Below, piece after piece: positions 1-24,699 of a DNA stretch of 25,947 nt; position 1 is the stretch's first letter; every line of letters starts with the position of its first letter. The stretch lies in the UHGV virus genome UHGV-0145877; one strand, written 5' to 3'. Origin of the DNA: a virus. The notes below the pieces were generated by a model that did not search any database, had not been told where the DNA came from, and saw only the letters and a list, made by a program, of their open reading frames with translations. Position numbers and translations under genes: made by a program.

Positions 1-16
1 TCACTTCAGCGGGTAG

Positions 17-52
17 TCATCAAACTCACCATAACGCACTTCGTTGATGATG
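17..52. repeat. 36-nt imperfect direct repeat, copy 1, with dyad-symmetric ends (tcatcaa...ttgatga)
   Basis: tcatcaaactcaccataacgcacttcgttgatgatg at 17-52 matches copy 2 at 259-294 at about 29 of 36 positions. The outer 10-nt arms are identical and mutually reverse-complementary. Confidence 0.6.
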
Positions 53-258
53 TACGTGATCACCAAAAATATCGCATCCGGACTAGTTCCATCTTCATGC
101 GCAGGCATATGTTCATGCCTACCTGTCTGCAAACCAGTAATAAGCCATTACAGGGTGATAGTGATGCATCAACTACGTTAAGCGCAGAGAAATGATGCAG
201 TGGTGGGCGGATTGGCTTGATGAAAAGGTGGCATAGCGCCACCTACATCCCTGGGCAA

Positions 259-294
259 TCATCAAACTAACCTGCACGCGCATCGTTGATGATG
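259..294. repeat. 36-nt imperfect direct repeat, copy 2
   Basis: tcatcaaactaacctgcacgcgcatcgttgatgatg. It is preceded by ggg-N3 as in copy 1 (gggtag versus gggcaa). Confidence 0.6.
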
Positions 295-460
295 CACCCA
301 TCCCATTTTTTTGATAGGATTAACACGAGAACAGAAAGAATTATATCTAATTGTTTTTAAAGCGGAAATTTTCATACCATCTTTTCCATTACCGTTTTTA
401 TATAAATGTAATGAAGTATAGCTTTAAATGATTTAACATCAGGATATTATATAATCCCTA

Positions 461-1660
461 ATGGTCGTGAGCGTTTTTATGTTTGACTTGACGTTTATTA
501 TCTTTATTTTATCTTCCATCCCTGTATTTTTTGTTTTTTGGATTGCCGGAAGGTTTAAGAATGAATTAGTTGCAGACTCTTCTTTTGGATTGCGAGGTGA
601 TGACAATTTATCTTGCCTCAGGGGGTTGGCGGCTGTCATGGTCGCCCTTCACCATTCAGTATATATGTTCAATTATCTTTATCATGATAAATGGAGTATA
701 TTTTTGAATGATGGATTTGCGGCGAAGTCAAGCAACAATAGTTTATTGGCCATTGCATATTTTGGCTCCATTCCAGTCATGATATTCTTTATGATTACAG
801 GGTTTCTCTTCTTTAGAAAAATAATAAACAAACCAATAAACAATGCTGCAATATTTTTGTCGGCGCGAGTTAAGAGACTAATTCCAATGTATGCATTCAT
901 GGTGCTTTGCGTTGTTTGTGTTTCTGAATTAATTCGACCCAACGATAGCATTGGGATTCACAACATTATTGTTGAAGTTGGCCGATATTTTACGTTTGGT
1001 ATAATTGACCCTAATGGCCTTACACCTTCTATTCATGGATCTTTAATCGTTGGCGGGGTTATCTGGACTCTTGCATATGAGTGGGGTTTTTATATAATTT
1101 TACCATATATCTCTATGTTCGTAAAATCAATAAGAGATGCATGTTTTTCGGTAATAATTATGCTTTTCTCGGTATTAATTGCTTACCGCCAAGAGCTTAT
1201 CAGTGAAATGTTTGCCACTCTTCTCTTTTGCTTTATTGGTGGCTTTGTTGCAGCGCTAGCTTCTGGTTACCTAAAGAACAACGCTATCAAACAAGCCAAT
1301 AGCGTAATGATGACAATTGTGTACCTTTTATCGCTTATTGCTGTCGCATACTGGCAGGACTTTAACATTTACAATGTTTACATAGTGATTCCGCTATTTT
1401 TGTTTTTTTTAAGTGCGTGTACTGGCTCCAAAGCTTTTCAAATTATAAACACCAAGTTCTTCAAGGTGGCGGGTTCTGTAAGTTACAGCATTTATTTGAT
1501 GCATGGCTTAAGCATGGTAATGACCTTTAATTTCATTTCAAGCTCATTAAACTATACTGAGTTTGCAGCAATATCTTTATCAATTTGTGCAATGATAAGT
1601 TGCTTAACTTACTTATACATTGAAAAACCCGCAATGAAAAAACAGTTTAAAAACAATTAG
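461..1660 (+). CDS. Acyltransferase family 3 integral membrane protein (O-antigen or other surface polysaccharide acetyltransferase-like)
   Basis: 399-aa, highly hydrophobic, multi-helix ORF with an N-terminal motif LRGLAAVMVALHH typical of acyltransferase-3 enzymes. Strongly AT-rich relative to the phage structural genes and on the opposite strand. True start may be the ATG at 479 (MFDLT...). Confidence 0.7.
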   Translation: MVVSVFMFDLTFIIFILSSIPVFFVFWIAGRFKNELVADSSFGLRGDDNLSCLRGLAAVMVALHHSVYMFNYLYHDKWSIFLNDGFAAKSSNNSLLAIAYFGSIPVMIFFMITGFLFFRKIINKPINNAAIFLSARVKRLIPMYAFMVLCVVCVSELIRPNDSIGIHNIIVEVGRYFTFGIIDPNGLTPSIHGSLIVGGVIWTLAYEWGFYIILPYISMFVKSIRDACFSVIIMLFSVLIAYRQELISEMFATLLFCFIGGFVAALASGYLKNNAIKQANSVMMTIVYLLSLIAVAYWQDFNIYNVYIVIPLFLFFLSACTGSKAFQIINTKFFKVAGSVSYSIYLMHGLSMVMTFNFISSSLNYTEFAAISLSICAMISCLTYLYIEKPAMKKQFKNN

Positions 1661-1703: not shown

Positions 1704-2135
1704 TTAAGCTGGCTTAATAGGCCATTCTATGTCGGGAGCCTTGGTAACATTAATAGCTTCCAATTCATCAAGATAATCCAGCCATGCACCATACTGATAT
1801 TTTTCATCATTACGGAGCCGACCCATAGCCGCTTTTCCAGGCCATTGCTTGCTGTTCATGTTAGAGTTGGCCTGTTCAATAAGAATCTGCCTCTTGCGTT
1901 CTGCTGCTGCTACCTGCTCATCATGAGTTAGTGCTGGTAGTTCACCCCATTCCGGATAACCATCTTTTCCAGCGATGCGGACCTTCCCAGTTGGCGGTTC
2001 CTTTGTATATTCTGTAAATATATCTTCGTCACATTCAACACCATCAGTAGGCCAGCAATTTCCAGAAATATAATCTTCTTTCATTGATGTTGGATAGAAA
2101 GCGTTATTTATTGCACTGTACACATATTTTTCCAT
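1704..2135 (-). CDS. Tail fiber assembly protein (Tfa-like chaperone)
   Basis: 143-aa ORF immediately downstream of the tail fiber gene. The composition and C-terminal region (EKYQYGAWLDYLDELE...) are typical of lambda/P2-type tail fiber assembly proteins. Confidence 0.65.
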   Translation of the reverse strand: MEKYVYSAINNAFYPTSMKEDYISGNCWPTDGVECDEDIFTEYTKEPPTGKVRIAGKDGYPEWGELPALTHDEQVAAAERKRQILIEQANSNMNSKQWPGKAAMGRLRNDEKYQYGAWLDYLDELEAINVTKAPDIEWPIKPA

Positions 2136-2136
2136 T

Positions 2137-2832
2137 TTATTTACCTATAGCTATCCATCGACAATAAGTTGTATTGCTACCTGATGGCTGGGAACCCATT
2201 AAGCTAAAACCAAGACCGGTACTAACGGGTGTAGCAGCAAAAGAAGGAATTGAATTTACTGCAGATTCCGCATTATCATACGACACAACAATTTGCACGG
2301 TTGAGTAGTTGGTAAATGCAATGGGGAAATTTATAAAAGTGGGAGATCCAATCGCTCCTGCCACTGAAACACCACGTTGAAAGATAGTTCCATCAGGGTA
2401 ACGACACCAGCCATTTCCACTTGTAAAGCTAGACATGTCAGGAATTTGATTGGTGCCGGTCCCTACATTTCTTTTAGCCGCTTCTCCCAAACCAAGGTTT
2501 TCGAGAGCCGTTGGTACCGTGCCGTCCGATTTGATATCACCAAACGGATTATTGCGGCTCAGGTATTCAACAGCAAACCCCGATCCCAGCAATTCAACAA
2601 AACCGGGCAGATCACCATTATCAAGCACATCCCGTTGCGTTTTATCACTTACAAACTGGGCCAGAGCTGCAGCAATAAAGCTGGCCTGCCGAATAACCTT
2701 ATTGACTTGCGCACTGGATGCTTTCCCTGCTGTAAATCCGGATATAAGCGCAGGCAACGCTTCCCATTCCTCCTGCGACATAACATTGGCATTTCGATCA
2801 GTTGCAAACGCTTTAAAGTCATTTTTCGCCAT
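2137..2832 (-). CDS. Tail fiber protein (short, with receptor-binding C-terminal region)
   Basis: Conserved fiber-like N-terminus [12 protein letters not shown]...[16 protein letters not shown]... and a variable Gly/Ser-rich C-terminus. ATG at 2832 overlaps the upstream stop by 1 nt (TGATG) and has a GGGAG Shine-Dalgarno upstream; the ORF track's 2850 start is in-frame upstream. Confidence 0.65.
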
Positions 2833-5061: not shown

Positions 5062-5813
5062 CAGTTTACCCCGTCGGTACTGCTTCCACCGCGCTGAACA
5101 CCACCATGAGTGTGCGTATTATCGATTGGCTTGCCGTTAGCCTTCACGCTACCCAAAAACTCAACAACACCAGTGATTTTTGAAGCCACACCAGAAACAA
5201 CAGACCCCACCATGCCCCCCATCCAGGTTAACAGGCCATGAATGGTTACTTTCTCAGAAAAATCAGCCAGAGGGGCAACCACATCAAGACCACCCGGAGC
5301 GACAATTTTAATTTTCCTGGTATCAGGATTAAGCTCAAAATAGGTGCTGCCATCGTCACTACGCAACTGTGTGGCACTGGTATTAATACCGCTAATCTTC
5401 CTCGCCTGCGACTGGGGGCCTACAATACAAAACGCATCCGATAAATCATGCATTCTGTCATCGACCGGTTCCTGTATTCCGCCGCTCTGCCACCAGAAAT
5501 CAATACAACGATCGGCAAAAACGACAAGACACTCATCCCCGGCTTTAATCGGAAACGTTAGCGTACATCCTCCGCCACGTGGGAATACCACTGGAACATC
5601 CACCAGCAATGGGTAATTTTTGGTAATGCGGTTGCCGTCATTATCCTTTTCAACCGAACGGATAGCAGGCTGCACAACCGCCGTCACCGCATCAGGATCG
5701 AATGACTGAATAATGCCAGGCAAGGCGACTCGGATCTGATTCTTTGTTGTTTCCCGTTCAGATTTGAATGTTTCGGCAAGGTCGCCGCTGCGGGTCTGGT
5801 CAGATACTGCCAT
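5061..5813 (-). CDS. Baseplate spike / assembly protein V-like
   Basis: Probable start is the ATG at 5813 (MAVSDQ...) with a GGAG Shine-Dalgarno 8 nt upstream; the ORF-track start at 5834 is a TTG inside the terminator A-tract. Gly-rich C-terminus typical of spike proteins. Confidence 0.6.
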   Translation of the reverse strand: MAVSDQTRSGDLAETFKSERETTKNQIRVALPGIIQSFDPDAVTAVVQPAIRSVEKDNDGNRITKNYPLLVDVPVVFPRGGGCTLTFPIKAGDECLVVFADRCIDFWWQSGGIQEPVDDRMHDLSDAFCIVGPQSQARKISGINTSATQLRSDDGSTYFELNPDTRKIKIVAPGGLDVVAPLADFSEKVTIHGLLTWMGGMVGSVVSGVASKITGVVEFLGSVKANGKPIDNTHTHGGVQRGGSSTDGVN

Positions 5814-5832
5814 TTGGTAGGCTCCAGAAAGC

Positions 5833-5861
5833 AAAAAACCCGCCGAATGGCGGGTTTTGTT
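5833..5861. terminator. Rho-independent terminator (bidirectional; strong on the minus strand)
   Basis: aaaaaa cccgcc gaat ggcggg ttttgtt: 6-bp GC stem (5839-5844 / 5849-5854), 4-nt loop, flanked by an A6 tract and a T-tract. On the minus strand the hairpin is followed by TTTTTT, 20 nt downstream of the stop of the 5878-6273 gene. Confidence 0.75.
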
Positions 5862-5877
5862 AATTCACTGAATGAGT

Positions 5878-6273
5878 TTAAACAGCTTCATCAGTCTTCA
5901 TTTTTTCCCACTGAGAAAAAATAGTCTTAACCTCTAAGAGAGATTGCTGTGCCATTGCTTTATCTATTGCACAGCTAGTGAGGTCATAATCTGCTTCATT
6001 TCGAGCCAGTCTCTGTTGCTCAAGTTTGTAAGCCATGGATTTTAGGCTTAATGGATCATATGGCTCCAGTTTGTTTTCACTCTTATTTTTAAGATAAGAG
6101 ATAAGACTGGAATGATGATCCTTCGTATAAGCAGGAAGACTGGTCAGATTCTCTTTTATTTCATGGTAAAGCGCATAATATGCCCGCGAAATAGTATTAC
6201 GATAACCAACTTCAGAATCCTCCGCAAAGCAACGCTCCGCTGAAGATAAAAACTCAGAGCTAGTTATAGGCAT
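5878..6273 (-). CDS. Hypothetical helical protein, possibly HEPN-like (second gene of the AT-rich cassette)
   Basis: 131-aa ORF overlapping the upstream gene by 14 nt and followed by a strong terminator. Helix-forming sequence with SRAYYALYHEIKENL, HHSSLISYL and RLARNEADYDL segments that resemble the helical layout of HEPN-type domains. Not confirmed. Confidence 0.6.
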   Translation of the reverse strand: MPITSSEFLSSAERCFAEDSEVGYRNTISRAYYALYHEIKENLTSLPAYTKDHHSSLISYLKNKSENKLEPYDPLSLKSMAYKLEQQRLARNEADYDLTSCAIDKAMAQQSLLEVKTIFSQWEKMKTDEAV

Positions 6274-7030
6274 ATTTACACCCTTTCAAGCTATTTCTTT
6301 CAACGGAAAAACGTGCAATAAGATTGCAATCATCAAGTAAATCGATTGAACAAATTTCATCTGCAAGTCGCATATTCATTGCAACCACCTGTTCAGGGGA
6401 TGCATTAACTACCTCAACCAGATAAGTCCCACCAGATGCACCGTTGATGTCAGCACGATATTCAGTTGGAGGGAATTCAGCCATGACTCTATGAACAGCA
6501 AGAGCAACTTGCATGTATTGTTCTGAAGAGCATCCTGACTTTTTGTATGCTTCATCCATATCGTGAATTACCTCCTGCAAGAAGGCTTCTGCGTCATCCC
6601 TATGTTCTTCTTGGGATAACATTTTGCAATGACGTCCAAAATATTCTACGCATTTTGATAGTTTCCCTACCAAATACGCAACGCCACCAGCCCTATAAGT
6701 AAACCACTTGGTTGGATACTTATCAGCTAAAGAATAGATGTAGTAGTCCGATTTTTCGAGTAGAGAAAAACGCTCAAGCAGCTTACAAAAAATCCGCGCA
6801 AAGTTAACATCAGCATGTGGGAGGATAGCTTCAAGCATTTCAATCCCGACACTCACATCACCTTTAGCAATATGAGCCAAAGCTACAAGCGTGTCAGCAG
6901 GCGGAGTACGCTTAGAGCCATACTCCGAGACCACCTCTCGAAAGGTCCAAATATCAAGAGGTTGACCACTATTGATTATCTTAACCAACTGGTCAAAACG
7001 CTCTTCCGCTTTCAGTTTTGGTCTTGCCAC
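6260..7030 (-). CDS. Hypothetical protein (first gene of the AT-rich cassette), function unknown
   Basis: 256-aa soluble ORF with a GTG start at 7030 and no in-frame ATG upstream. Preceded by a sigma70-like promoter. AT-rich versus the flanking baseplate genes. No motif I can assign. Confidence 0.6.
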   Translation of the reverse strand: MARPKLKAEERFDQLVKIINSGQPLDIWTFREVVSEYGSKRTPPADTLVALAHIAKGDVSVGIEMLEAILPHADVNFARIFCKLLERFSLLEKSDYYIYSLADKYPTKWFTYRAGGVAYLVGKLSKCVEYFGRHCKMLSQEEHRDDAEAFLQEVIHDMDEAYKKSGCSSEQYMQVALAVHRVMAEFPPTEYRADINGASGGTYLVEVVNASPEQVVAMNMRLADEICSIDLLDDCNLIARFSVERNSLKGCKYAYN

Positions 7031-7059
7031 AGTACGCTCGCTACTTATCTTTTGGTTGA

Positions 7060-7089
7060 ATTTTATGTTCGCGTATACAGTTTAGTCAA
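7060..7089 (-). promoter_or_regulatory. Candidate sigma70 promoter for the 6260-7030 / 5878-6273 cassette
   Basis: Minus strand reads TTGACT (7089-7084), an 18-nt spacer, then TAAAAT (7065-7060), about 30 nt upstream of the GTG start at 7030. Confidence 0.45.
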
Positions 7090-7126
7090 TCCGAAGCTCG
7101 TGCTGTTGAGCCGTTTCGCACAAAAT

Positions 7127-7145
7127 CATCCTTGCAAAAAGGATG
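7127..7145 (-). terminator. Candidate intrinsic terminator after the secreted-protein gene
   Basis: catcctt gcaaa aaggatg: 7-bp stem, 5-nt loop. On the minus strand it lies immediately after the stop at 7151 and is followed by ATTTTGTG. Confidence 0.4.
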
Positions 7146-7150
7146 GGACT

Positions 7151-7492
7151 TCAACCATCAACCTTTTTACACGGGAAAGATCCGATGATTTTCGGTGCAT
7201 CCATGCTGTTCTGCAGAAGCTGGACGTTCAGGAAACGCGTTTCGGTGCCAGGGCGACGAATGTATTCAAAGCCATAATTGTTGCCATCTTTAGCAGGCAT
7301 AAGCCCCATATCAATCTTAATGCCATCAGCACCAAGATTTGTAATTTTCTGCGATGTGACGCGTTCACCGTTAATCATGTCCATTTCACCCAACCTTGCA
7401 GTGATGGTGTAAGGCCCACAATAAGCGGTGTACCCGCTTGCTGATGCCCCAAATGACATAAAGGCAACAATTAAAATGGCTAAGGCTTTCAA
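7151..7492 (-). CDS. Small secreted (periplasmic) protein with an N-terminal signal peptide; accessory gene
   Basis: 113-aa ORF; MKALAILIVAFMSFGASA-SG is a classic Sec signal peptide with an A-S-A cleavage motif. Begins 2 nt after the baseplate hub gene ends. Somewhat AT-richer than its neighbours. Confidence 0.6.
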   Translation of the reverse strand: MKALAILIVAFMSFGASASGYTAYCGPYTITARLGEMDMINGERVTSQKITNLGADGIKIDMGLMPAKDGNNYGFEYIRRPGTETRFLNVQLLQNSMDAPKIIGSFPCKKVDG

Positions 7493-22184: not shown

Positions 22185-22736
22185 TTAGCCCATCATTTTT
22201 CTATACGCCTCTGCAGCCTGCTCCGGCGTTAAGTTGGTAATTTCTGTTCTGACTGGTCCTCCATCAGCGCCAGTCACTTCATTTTTGACGTTGTCTTTAA
22301 ACGCCTGAACAGAAACATGACGCCCAAGCAACTCAAGGTTTTTAACCTTATCAGGCCATTTGATTTTCTTCAGAAGTGCGGCGCTATCTGCGGATACCAT
22401 CTCCACGACATCCATTCCTGATAGCGTTGTGCGCCATACCTTAGGCCAGTCTTTAATGGGTTTTAGCTCACCGTTTTGCAGGAGAATGTCGAGCACATCC
22501 ATCTGGTCGATTTCAAGAAGGCGATTAAGTACGTATTCTGCATTTATTCCAACAGAGTCATTGCGTTGTGCTTTCAATTCGGAGATTCTGAATTGTATGT
22601 CAGGTTTTGACATGTTTTCGGACGCAGTACGGTTGGCTGTCTTTGCGCTGTACCCCGCCCGAATAGCCGCTTGCGTGGCGTTTAAATCGATGAGGTACTC
22701 GCGACAGAACATTTCTTGTTTGTCAGTGAGCGCCAT
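22185..22736 (-). CDS. Terminase small subunit
   Basis: N-terminus [30 protein letters not shown] is the characteristic small-terminase helix-turn-helix motif. AGGGGA Shine-Dalgarno upstream of the ATG at 22736. Confidence 0.75.
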
Positions 22737-22763
22737 ATTTTCCCCTGCTGATAAGGTAAATAA

Positions 22764-23288
22764 ATGAATCCTGAAATTTTTGAATCAAAGTTCATAATGA
22801 ACGAAGCAACTTGGCAACGAATTGAAAGGTTAGTAAATACTGAAGATGATATTGGTTTGGTTTTAAGAGTACATCTGATTACAGAAGCAATGATTGAGGC
22901 ATTTTGTTGCGCCGCTGTAGGTAACCAAAATCTATTTGATGGATTTGGTGAAAACTTAACCATGACCTATGCCGCAAAAATTCAGCTAGCTGCCAACCTC
23001 GGCCTAAATGAACACTCCGTCGCAGAACTTAAACGCCTAAATAGAATAAGAAATGTTCGCTCTCATCAAATAGACAACCCGGAAATAACTGACGCAGAAA
23101 TTGAATCATTACGAACATTTATTAGCCGAGGTGGTCAGGAAGATCTCATTAACTCAGCAAGATTCGGCATAAAAGTTGGAGACATTGAGCTGAATCTTAA
23201 CCGTCCAGATGCCAATAATCGTGAAAAATTCATAGCTATTCTTGGCAGCATCATCCTAAGGCTCACTAAACAAGTTGCAGGACAATAG
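22764..23288 (+). CDS. HEPN-motif protein (putative Abi-like RNase), lysogen-expressed accessory gene
   Basis: 174-aa plus-strand ORF, antisense to the late operon. R-x4-H motif (RNVRSH, R96 to H101, nt 23049-23066) within a predicted helical protein. Clearly AT-rich. ATG at 22764 with TAAGGT 8 nt upstream. Confidence 0.6.
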   Translation: MNPEIFESKFIMNEATWQRIERLVNTEDDIGLVLRVHLITEAMIEAFCCAAVGNQNLFDGFGENLTMTYAAKIQLAANLGLNEHSVAELKRLNRIRNVRSHQIDNPEITDAEIESLRTFISRGGQEDLINSARFGIKVGDIELNLNRPDANNREKFIAILGSIILRLTKQVAGQ

Positions 23289-23869
23289 AGATCATTGACT
23301 GAGCTAATTGATTGTTTTAGCGCATAAACCTATACCACAAAATAGCCACTTATCACGCTTCATCATTCAATTCTGGCGTGAACTGTATGCGCCTCACATT
23401 GTCGGGAGAGAAATACAGTCACTCTCCCGTCTCGATCACAAGCGGCACAAAGCCGTTAACCAACTCATGCTGAAATCGTGACGTCTTGCTCGTAACGGTT
23501 TCGCCTGTTTGGGTGGTTAACGTGATTTGGTAGATGTTGGACATTGAGAATCTCTTTATCCGCTTGTGGGGATATCAGTTAAGTTATCCCGTGTAGGGTA
23601 TAAGCCATTGTCGAGACCACTCATTGAATGGACTCTGCAATAACCGATGTCTTTCCATCAGTCCGCCACCACAAAGAATCTTTTTTGCCATAAGGCAGGA
23701 GGTTCATCTTTCAGTGGCTGCCAGTGTTATTTCCCCACTTACTGGCTTGGGTTGCTTCGCGGTACTGCCGTAACTGGTTACCCAGAATAAATTCCGGTTT
23801 CATTATCAAGCCCACCCGTAAATGGGCTTTGTAATGAAGAGTTGTTATGAAAATTGCTCTAAACAAGCA

Positions 23870-24358
23870 TTAATAGCCATCAGAAGTAATCGCTACAGAT
23901 TTCAATCCCTCAATGTCATCCTTGGACAGGGCGAACCATTCACCGTGCTTTCTCTTTGCGGCAAATTTGCGATGAAGCATGTTTTCAGTTTCTCTTCCAC
24001 CAGGGATCAGGCACTCAAGCTTCAAGCAGTCTGGTCCAGAGTTGCCAAGCGATTTGATGCGTTGTGGAATGTTGGATGAATACCCAATTTTGGTTAGCCC
24101 AGTTTTCTTCGATGACAAAACGTATACCTGAGGAGGTTCTTTTCTCTGGTCTTCCATTACACGTCTCATTGTTGCCATAAGTCCGCCGTGCATCAGCATT
24201 TCAACAAAGAACGCTGACCGAACACCTGACGACTTAAGCATGCCAGAAAATTCACTTGCCAATTCCATTAACTCTGCGATGTTTTCAGGAACTTTTTGGC
24301 AGTTATCTTCCTTGTATAAGGAAATCATTCTTTGAAGCTTTTCTTCTAATTGGTTCAT
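23870..24358 (-). CDS. T5orf172-like (GIY-YIG-like) domain protein
   Basis: C-terminal region VYVLSSKKTGLTKIGYSSNIPQRIKSL...HRKFAAKRKHGEWFALSKDDI resembles the T5orf172 domain. Probable start is the ATG at 24358 (AAGG Shine-Dalgarno); the ORF track extends to a GTG at 24514 with no Shine-Dalgarno. Confidence 0.5.
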   Translation of the reverse strand: MNQLEEKLQRMISLYKEDNCQKVPENIAELMELASEFSGMLKSSGVRSAFFVEMLMHGGLMATMRRVMEDQRKEPPQVYVLSSKKTGLTKIGYSSNIPQRIKSLGNSGPDCLKLECLIPGGRETENMLHRKFAAKRKHGEWFALSKDDIEGLKSVAITSDGY

Positions 24359-24699
24359 AGCGTCTTTACCTTTTAGAAAGTGAGCCTGTCTCACAGAAAA
24401 GCCGCCCGAGAGAGGTTGCCACCTATAACGGCATTTCTCAGGCTCACTTACTGAAAGGCTCTCGTTAATATGCGCGTGAGATGCGCGGTTTACTGCAGAT
24501 GTAAAAAGCCCCACAAATGCGAGGCTAAATCCTGGTATTTGTAATGACTGGCTCTTATCTCAACGCGGCCCCTTACCGCGCGCCAGATGCTCAATCTCAA
24601 GCATCAGCAATGAGATGTTTAATCTGGATTCACTCCAGAAGTGATCACCACCCTGTCTACAGAGCCAGATGTGAAGGATGATGAGTAAAATTATCGCTA

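Follow-up and report, generated by a model that had tools for sequence, protein, structure and literature searches.

What does a membrane acyltransferase gene do at the end of a phage tail module, next to the genes for host recognition? The question is raised by the virus genome UHGV-0145877, from which a stretch of 25,947 nucleotides (hereafter, the window) was analysed. A previous reading made from the letters alone (the sequence-only reading) had noted a 399-aa polytopic membrane protein with the acyltransferase-3 (AT3) hallmark at 461-1660, and had proposed it as a candidate serotype-conversion gene. We find that this gene encodes an AT3 enzyme with an intact catalytic set, that its closest characterised relative is OacB of Shigella phage Sf101, that it occupies the slot in which related phages carry serotype-conversion genes, and that it moves together with the gene for the tail fibre assembly protein (Tfa) and the tip of the fibre. 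The product is almost certainly an active acyltransferase encoded by a prophage moron, and it very probably acts on a surface or envelope glycan. We favour the O-antigen as the acceptor, with resulting serotype conversion and phage exclusion, although with clearly less assurance.

The acyltransferase gene and its closest characterised relatives

The listing of open reading frames (ORFs) in the window gives an intact frame of 399 aa on the plus strand at 461..1660, exactly where the sequence-only reading had placed the protein. At the composition of the local DNA (253-1703: A 27.8%, T 37.1%, G 18.2%, C 17.0%) the probability of 399 stop-free codons is 1.4e-12, and the 401 stop-free codons at the locus compare with a maximum of 174 aa in 2,000 shuffles. 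Antisense ORFs at 439..639 and 682..951 were considered and set aside as by-products of AT-rich DNA, the plus-strand ORF accounting for the region. The reading of the ORF as a decaying remnant was ruled out, since it is intact, 100% identical across contexts and retains every catalytic residue. The start itself is ambiguous, with two candidate codons: ATG461 lacks a Shine-Dalgarno sequence and is overlapped by a TATAAT-like hexamer, while ATG479 (Met7) is the RefSeq start and gives the 393/395-aa forms. The gene is AT-rich relative to the phage core, as had been noted (GC 0.357 versus 0.511 for positions 4709-25947), but low GC is not confined to the gene: the tract spans roughly 253 to 2500 and takes in Tfa and the C-terminal tip of the fibre (GC of Tfa and of the fibre C-terminal half, 0.424 each).

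The assignment to the acyltransferase-3 family holds. The match to the Pfam model Acyl_transf_3 (PF01757) reaches 80.1 bits (E 2e-22), where 31 bits is the gathering score, with residues 49-380 aligned to model positions 3-319 of 326, and PHROG 3333, 'O-acetyltransferase', is matched at 1.8e-44. The hallmark spans residues 53-65 (LRGLAAVMVALHH), and F, I, L, V, M, A and W together make up 54% of the protein. With a single Pfam domain in 399 aa and no fused SGNH domain, the protein is AT3-only.

Three motifs are diagnostic of this family. The R/K-X10-H motif in transmembrane helix (TMH) 1 is described as absolutely conserved, and as essential in OafA/OafB, OatA and OacB, and an RXXR motif lies at the cytoplasmic face of TMH3 (PMC9833829); the third motif is V-x-x-F-F-x-(I/V/L)-S-G-(F/W/Y), in which a change of Ser to Leu inactivates Lag1 (PMC9558356). 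In the window's protein we find R54-X10-H65 within model helix 47-75 and R136-V-K-R139 at the start of helix 129-158. Across an alignment with 64 homologs these four residues do not vary, nor do F109, F110, W202, E207, Y342 and E388. The third motif reads V106-MI-FF-M-I-T113-GF and matches at all positions except for Thr in place of Ser, by which the hydroxyl is kept. Because T113 is near-invariant in the same alignment, the substitution is best read as a trait of the clade rather than a lesion.

The AlphaFold2 (AF2) model built from this alignment (pLDDT 91.3, pTM 0.91) is all-helical and polytopic, in keeping with the predicted membrane protein. It has 10 long TM helices preceded by one extra N-terminal helix, and the last helix ends at 397. 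This 10 + 1 arrangement agrees with the 11 membrane segments predicted for OacB (PMC8952252). A sequence search of the PDB returned only a spurious proteasome match (E 0.84). Foldseek against the PDB found nothing at E <= 0.001, ranked major facilitator superfamily transporters at the top with TM < 0.25, and yielded no solved AT3 structure for comparison. The plausible PDB neighbours, below significance, were the HGSNAT-type entries 8jl4_A (prob 0.90, TM 0.38) and 8vlv_A; as non-significant matches to a predicted model, they fit the proposed TmAT superfamily (PMC12423673). One viral match was found in BFVD (A0A345N001, E 2e-5, 637 aa).

The sequence-only reading had suggested a comparison with characterised O-antigen acetyltransferases, and the nearest of these is OacB, a proven phage enzyme (PMC4159516). 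In a search of 50,697 phage records, OacB of Sf101 alone gave a useful score and coverage (25.5% identity over 87% of the length). Direct phmmer comparison gave 75.9 bits for Sf101 OacB, 15.2 for Sf6 Oac, 6.1 for K-12 WecH, -2.3 for K-12 OpgC and -10.1 for SfII OacD. The OacB group is defined by the motifs DGxRGxLAxxVxxHH, FFxITG(Y/F)LFxxK, WxLxYEWxFY and YSxYLxHG (PMC4159516). The second to fourth are exact in the AT3 protein (FFMITGFLFFRK, WTLAYEWGFY and YSIYLMHG); the first is matched in its core, RGxxAxxVxxHH (RGLAAVMVALHH), with S-C for D-G and A for L. Among the references compared, the four motifs are present in OacB alone. Mutagenesis of OacB identified R47, H58, W71, F98, R116, R119 and S146 as critical (PMC8952252), and six of these seven align with identical residues here (R54, H65, W78, F117, R136 and R139). 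OacB activity is proven by nuclear magnetic resonance (NMR), and OacB itself has FFMITG, that is, Thr at the position in question (PMC4159516). On these comparisons, we classify the protein as an OacB-like AT3-only enzyme.

The AT3 family also includes small-molecule acyltransferases, some of them actinomycete (CmmA, MdmB and Asm19; PMC9833829). It is thus conceivable that the substrate is not a glycan but a lipid or a small molecule, such as a macrolide or antibiotic intermediate, or else that the protein is catalytically dead. We consider either extremely improbable: the gene lies in an Enterobacteriaceae prophage context, the OacB-group motifs and the full set of essential residues are present, and no biosynthetic cluster lies near it.

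The integration slot and the mobile block

All 91 members of a single 99% cluster containing the AT3 gene are from E. coli, and the next homologs are at most 35% identical. The gene is present in 2 of 5,426 complete E. coli genomes. In both, it lies in a prophage between dacD and sbcB, with the integrase at the far end beside sbcB. Phages Sf101 and 2851 share the 13-bp attachment site (att) core CGTAATCGTGAAA (PMC4159516), which is found at both prophage ends (L001:7892 and L026:10221). Given this core at both ends and the integrase at the far one, it is the AT3 gene that lies nearest to attL, which is the place of oacB in Sf101, and at the sbcB site it takes the position of oacB.

A second set of carriers (L006-8, L039, L040, L042, L044 and L046) resides at the yfdC/argW locus, where yfdC is followed by an intact IntS-type integrase gene, the AT3 gene, and Tfa and fibre genes on the opposite strand. 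The matching slot in K-12 prophage CPS-53 reads argW, intS, yfdG/H/I (gtrABS), tfa and fibre; by this alignment of gene orders, the argW relatives have a single AT3 gene in place of the three-gene gtrABS cassette. The order in Sf6 is an IntS-type integrase, oac and a tailspike on the opposite strand, and in SfII the fibre and Tfa genes are followed by oacD on the opposite strand, convergent with Tfa. In the window, too, the AT3 gene is convergent with Tfa and fibre, at the end of the tail module of a contractile-tail phage, so that the opposite-strand placement beside these genes was read correctly. From gene order, we conclude that the AT3 gene is an att-proximal moron in the serotype-conversion slot between att/integrase and a receptor-binding gene.

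The two complete carriers have O16-family wzx/wzy genes and identical proteins across the whole region, and represent one lineage, isolated from human urine and a rectal swab. In NZ_CP063515.1 (L026 27465-37931) and in L027, the O16-family O-antigen cluster has intact wbbL and wbbJ and lies ~17 kb from the sbcB end of the prophage.

The argument from placement beside the fibre genes is strengthened by comparison of the window with 21 carrier loci, in which the AT3 gene travels with Tfa and the fibre tip. Shared DNA begins at 176-182 (in the dacD/sbcB prophages, at 253) and ends within the fibre gene at 2496, 2559 or 2986. The block thus spans an integrase stub, the AT3 gene and Tfa, and takes in no more of the fibre than its C-terminal, receptor-binding part (2137 to about 2496/2559), while the N-terminal part of the fibre is specific to the phage backbone. 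Overall identity from 176 to ~2500 is 99-100%, and Tfa is 99-100% identical in all carrier loci. The block is found at three attachment sites (argW, ybhB/bioA and dacD/sbcB) and, in mixed combinations, on at least three baseplate backgrounds: a Mu/SfV-like one (Gp45, Gp46, Gp48), one with 'Wedge1-212 aa / Pam3_gp18', and the window's own.

The AT3 ORF is intact in every full-length copy. In 7 of the first 11 carrier loci (L001, L003-L012), which span argW, ybhB/bioA and the window, its DNA is 100% identical, and the dacD allele differs at 7-8 sites and by a small indel that alters the last few residues. Variable sites comprise 6 synonymous and 4 non-synonymous changes, too few for a formal selection test. 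Because the ORF is near-identical across attachment sites and backgrounds, these data indicate that an intact AT3 gene has spread very recently. Some carriers (L003, L004, L006, L039 and L042) are hybrid or degraded prophages whose fibre gene borders on unrelated genes, namely a portal gene or a lambda-type phosphatase accompanied by nin genes; the AT3/Tfa/fibre-tip block is intact in these and has been kept through prophage decay.

More distant members of the clade were sampled in six further lineages with 28-35% identity to the AT3 protein. In Franconibacter (P0136) the homolog lies at the edge of a lambda-like prophage, beyond gpJ and an S74 fibre; in E. coli (P0007), in a prophage between lysis genes and an 826-aa gene; in Enterobacteriaceae (P0149, more than 100 contigs), in P2-like prophages, flanked by the sheath gene and Tfa; in Klebsiella (P0113), at yfdC, with a depolymerase-like spike on one side and an IntS-type integrase on the other; in Neisseriaceae (P0005), in a prophage remnant after a Tfa gene; and in Erwinia (P0020), outside any phage context. 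Receptor-binding genes adjoin the homolog in five of the six lineages, across four kinds of phage. The position between sheath gene and Tfa in the P2-like prophages is presumably the Z/fun position of P2.

The probable acceptor glycan and alternative explanations

In the AT3 domain, a pore brings cytoplasmic acyl-coenzyme A (acyl-CoA) to the periplasmic face, with the CoA phosphate bound by three conserved arginines and the thioester close to the TMH1 histidine (PMC9833829, PMC7448272). Transfer to the sugar, in AT3-only enzymes, is attributed to this domain as well (PMC9558356). We therefore picture, for the temperate E. coli myovirus represented by the window, an OacB-like inner-membrane enzyme encoded by a lysogenic-conversion moron at the att-proximal end and presumably expressed in the lysogen. 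The donor would be cytoplasmic acyl-CoA, most likely acetyl-CoA, entering by way of a membrane pore with R54, R136 and R139 along its wall. Transfer of the acyl group would take place near H65, at the periplasmic face, onto a hydroxyl group on a sugar of a surface glycan that is being, or has been, exported, most probably the O-antigen repeat unit. Modification by Sf6 Oac lowers the adsorption of phages that use the unmodified epitope (PMC9558356). By analogy, a lysogen with O-acylated O-antigen would have altered serospecificity, and would adsorb its own phage, and phages that recognise the same epitope, less well.

A number of observations temper this proposal. With only about 25% identity to OacB, the acceptor sugar and the position of acylation cannot be transferred from that enzyme, and the next relatives after OacB are uncharacterised. 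The critical S146 of OacB stands opposite G165 in a variable, poorly aligned loop, with S163 nearby, and Thr113 stands where the FFxxSG motif has its canonical Ser, though the functional OacB also has Thr there. Serogroup association is uninformative, as both complete carriers are O16 but form a single lineage. These O16 strains, moreover, already have wbbJ, an unrelated gene of O-acetyltransferase type (with a DapH/DapD/GlmU-related annotation), and the prophage acyltransferase may supplement a cluster that perhaps already encodes an O-acetyltransferase. Promoter-like sites upstream of the AT3 gene number 12, compared with 9.6 +/- 3.3 in shuffles, and are thus not in excess. Finally, many E. 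coli genomes have the fibre tip and Tfa (98-99% identical over window 1816-2559) but no AT3 gene. In L030, L031 and L032 the two make up one arm of an invertible host-range segment of the Pin type, in e14-like and P2-like prophages in which the invertase and the alternative tip and Tfa occupy the position of the AT3 gene. From these arrangements, the tip and Tfa are a generally exchangeable unit of which the AT3 gene is an occasional companion only, and recombination at conserved flanks could have produced the linkage of AT3 gene and tip incidentally.

The last of these observations raises the question of whether the AT3 gene is simply cargo at a permissive att-proximal spot, having no role at the receptor and either conferring some other benefit (serum or bile resistance, or immune evasion) or remaining silent. 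Besides the many genomes that carry tip and Tfa alone, the block boundaries fall on conserved sequences (the integrase 3' stub and the N-terminal region of the fibre), evidence for a promoter is weak, and the gene is as rare as its count among complete genomes indicates. However, receptor-binding neighbours recur in the distant homologs (28-35% identity) of five further, unrelated phage types, which is hard to obtain through flank homology alone; the ORF is intact and 100% identical across contexts, its few variable sites lean towards synonymous, and every catalytic residue is kept. We therefore consider incidental carriage improbable.

A different acceptor has better prospects, although we still hold it to be considerably less probable than the O-antigen. 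The enzyme could act on the outer core of lipopolysaccharide (LPS), a group 1/4 capsule or K antigen, colanic acid, enterobacterial common antigen (ECA) or periplasmic glucans, and still mask the receptor of the tip. AT3-only proteins acylate diverse glycans, including ECA (WecH), osmoregulated periplasmic glucans (OpgC) and exopolysaccharide (IcaC) (PMC9558356), and prophage acetyltransferases of Klebsiella associate with capsule loci (PMC13123978). The Klebsiella homolog of the present clade adjoins a depolymerase-like spike, and the linked tip and Tfa are among the exchangeable tips of the Pin-invertible segments of e14-like and P2-like prophages. Tips of such segments typically recognise variants of the LPS core. 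Against these indications, the AT3 protein is far nearer to OacB than to WecH or OpgC, both of which E. coli already has on its chromosome; the slot is that of the O-antigen modifiers gtrABS, oac, oacB and oacD in the closest phage relatives; and we found no AT3-only acylase of the core oligosaccharide in the literature consulted.

O-antigen acylation thus remains the reading that we prefer, and a bolder extension of it can be formulated: that fibre tip, Tfa and AT3 gene work as one cassette which recognises an epitope and then masks it, and which passes whole from one temperate phage to another, unrelated one, and from one attachment site to another. Here the acyltransferase would modify the very epitope bound by the linked tip, whether O-antigen or LPS outer core. 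We regard this extension as rather doubtful. If it were true, a phage gaining the tip would also gain exclusion of every phage with that tip, and the OacB-like clade would comprise general receptor-masking partners of receptor-binding proteins, in prophages of the myo-, sipho- and podovirus types.

That phages carry AT3 O-antigen acetyltransferases in an att-proximal position is already textbook knowledge, and the present gene is a divergent, uncharacterised E. coli member. Our literature search found no description of the gene itself or of acyltransferases in the P2 slot. What it adds is the tight and very recent co-transfer with an exchangeable tip and its chaperone, together with a link to receptor-binding genes across the clade. 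Prophage-driven O-acetylation is well documented in Shigella and Salmonella, and sparsely in E. coli. For phage Kapi1, the gene responsible for O-acetylation could not be found (PMC8787464). If the O-antigen is indeed acylated, a rare and very recently spreading prophage module alters the surface chemistry of E. coli lineages, the O16 one included. Such O-acylation would be invisible to O-genotyping from wzx/wzy, and would affect serotyping, recognition by O-antigen vaccines and antibodies, and susceptibility to phages, therapeutic ones among them. Overall, we propose that an acyltransferase coupled to an exchangeable tip and chaperone offers a testable case in which host-range and exclusion functions are perhaps co-inherited.

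Neighbouring features and comparison with known systems

The features of the locus are collected in Table 1.

Table 1. Features at the att-proximal end of the window (positions 1 to 2850).
Feature	Coordinates	Strand	Evidence
Sf101-like att-proximal DNA	1..175	.	window 1-231 collinear with Sf101 DNA just upstream of oacB
3' stub of IntS-type integrase gene, last ~20 codons (...KRREMMQWWADWLDEKVA*)	176..237	+	aligns to end of intact 385-aa integrase in L006
AT-rich upstream tract, presumed moron promoter region	253..460	+	GC 31.7%
AT3-only (acyltransferase-3, OacB-like) membrane acyltransferase gene, 399 aa; alternative start ATG479 = 393 aa	461..1660	+	Pfam, PHROG, motifs, AF2
Inverted repeat, 34 nt, between convergent AT3 and Tfa stop codons	1667..1700	.	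fold energy
Tfa (tail fibre assembly protein), 143 aa	1704..2135	-	Caudo_TAP 7.5e-29; PHROG 188, 3.4e-50
gp53-like tail fibre, 237 aa	2137..2850	-	Gp53-like_C residues 150-236; PHROG 11303 residues 7-126

The integrase stub marks, on the alignment, the left edge of the shared mobile block. Carriers integrated at argW keep the whole gene (in L006, 3546-4703). Because Sf101 likewise has an integrase stub upstream of oacB (L002 4623-4728), the two stubs suggest that the AT3 and Sf101 oacB cassettes both descended from an Sf6-like int-oac arrangement. A direct repeat of ~40 nt is present at 17-56 and 259-297, each copy ending in the dyad TCATCAA...TTGATGA. Because homology between the dacD/sbcB prophages and the window starts exactly at the second copy (253), the segment 56-252, with its Sf101-like DNA and integrase stub, looks like an insertion or deletion between repeats.

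The tract upstream of the AT3 gene is taken as its promoter region by presumption only, on the strength of weak sigma-70-like hexamers (TTTAAA-16-TATTAT at 423-450 and TATAAT at 450-455) that score 9 of 12. Phase variation of the Dam/OxyR type, as in gtr operons, is unsupported: no GATC site occurs from position 59 to 700, this tract included. Downstream, the inverted repeat folds with -23.1 kcal/mol (z -6.2; matched by 0 of 200 shuffles) and is probably a bidirectional terminator. The sole Rfam match over 1-2400 fell on this hairpin, far below the gathering score. A tRNA scan of the window found no tRNA, and hence no tRNA att site there. No NCBIfam family was matched by the AT3 protein, Tfa or the fibre, and PADLOC gave no defence-system match for the AT3 protein. 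The other neighbours on the minus strand are a DUF2612/wedge gene, baseplate J and a membrane-puncturing spike, the last at 5064-5834 with a match to Pfam PF18352.

The window holds two further low-GC islands. At 5857-7152, a two-gene insertion on the minus strand (ORFs 5878..6273 and 6260..7030; GC 0.40-0.43) separates the spike gene from the tail genes upstream. It is missing from the collinear prophage of NZ_CP063515.1, where homology stops at 5856 and resumes at 7153. Its 131-aa product has a weak HEPN_IX match (PADLOC, E 0.009) and its 256-aa product has no family. The insertion is possibly another moron, such as a toxin or defence pair of the HEPN type. The second island, at 22500-24500 (ORFs 22764..23288 on the plus and 23870..24514 on the minus strand; GC 0.41-0.44), lies between the small terminase gene and the lysis region; its 214-aa product has a MUG113/T5orf172 (GIY-YIG-like) domain (1.4e-14) and a weak PADLOC PDC-S57 match, and its 174-aa product has no family.

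Among known systems, the closest is OacB, encoded by Sf101 and on the S. flexneri chromosome, which performs 3/4-O-acetylation of RhaIII and 6-O-acetylation of GlcNAc. Like OacB, the present protein is AT3-only and about 390-400 aa long, has an extra N-terminal helix before a 10-TMH core, and shares the motifs RGxxAxxVxxHH, FFMITG(F/Y)LFxxK, WTLxYEWxFY and YSxYLxHG, with Thr replacing the canonical Ser. Its gene, like oacB, is att-proximal and convergent with a receptor-binding gene; the DNA upstream (window 1-231) is homologous to that preceding oacB; and some carriers share the sbcB integration site and the 13-bp att core. The differences lie in the phage, a contractile-tail one with a gp53-like fibre and Tfa whereas Sf101 is a P22-like podovirus with a tailspike, in the host, which here is E. 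coli (O16 in the two complete genomes), and in S146, for which no clear equivalent is seen.

Oac (OacA) of Shigella phage Sf6 performs 2-O-acetylation of RhaI and brings about serotype conversion and exclusion of Sf6. It is likewise AT3-only, and its gene order recurs in the argW carriers, where an IntS-type integrase is followed by the AT3 gene, convergent with a receptor-binding gene; the window retains the 3' stub of that integrase (176-237). In contrast to this shared arrangement, the sequence relation is weak (15 bits, 27% identity over 207 aa), and Sf6 Oac itself, at 333 aa, lacks both the extra N-terminal helix and the OacB-group motifs.

Outside the 99% cluster, the closest relatives are the morons of the P2-like prophages (P0149) and of Franconibacter helveticus (P0136), which have the same length and motifs and, like the AT3 gene, lie near Tfa or fibre genes, but on other backbones and in other slots. 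As sequence relatives, they contribute pattern, not function. The gtrABS genes (yfdG/H/I) of K-12 CPS-53/KplE1 and the gtrABC genes of SfV, SfII and P22 resemble the AT3 gene as presumed prophage modifiers of the O-antigen; they differ in that three unrelated proteins carry out a bactoprenol-linked glucosylation, where the window would rely on one acyltransferase gene.

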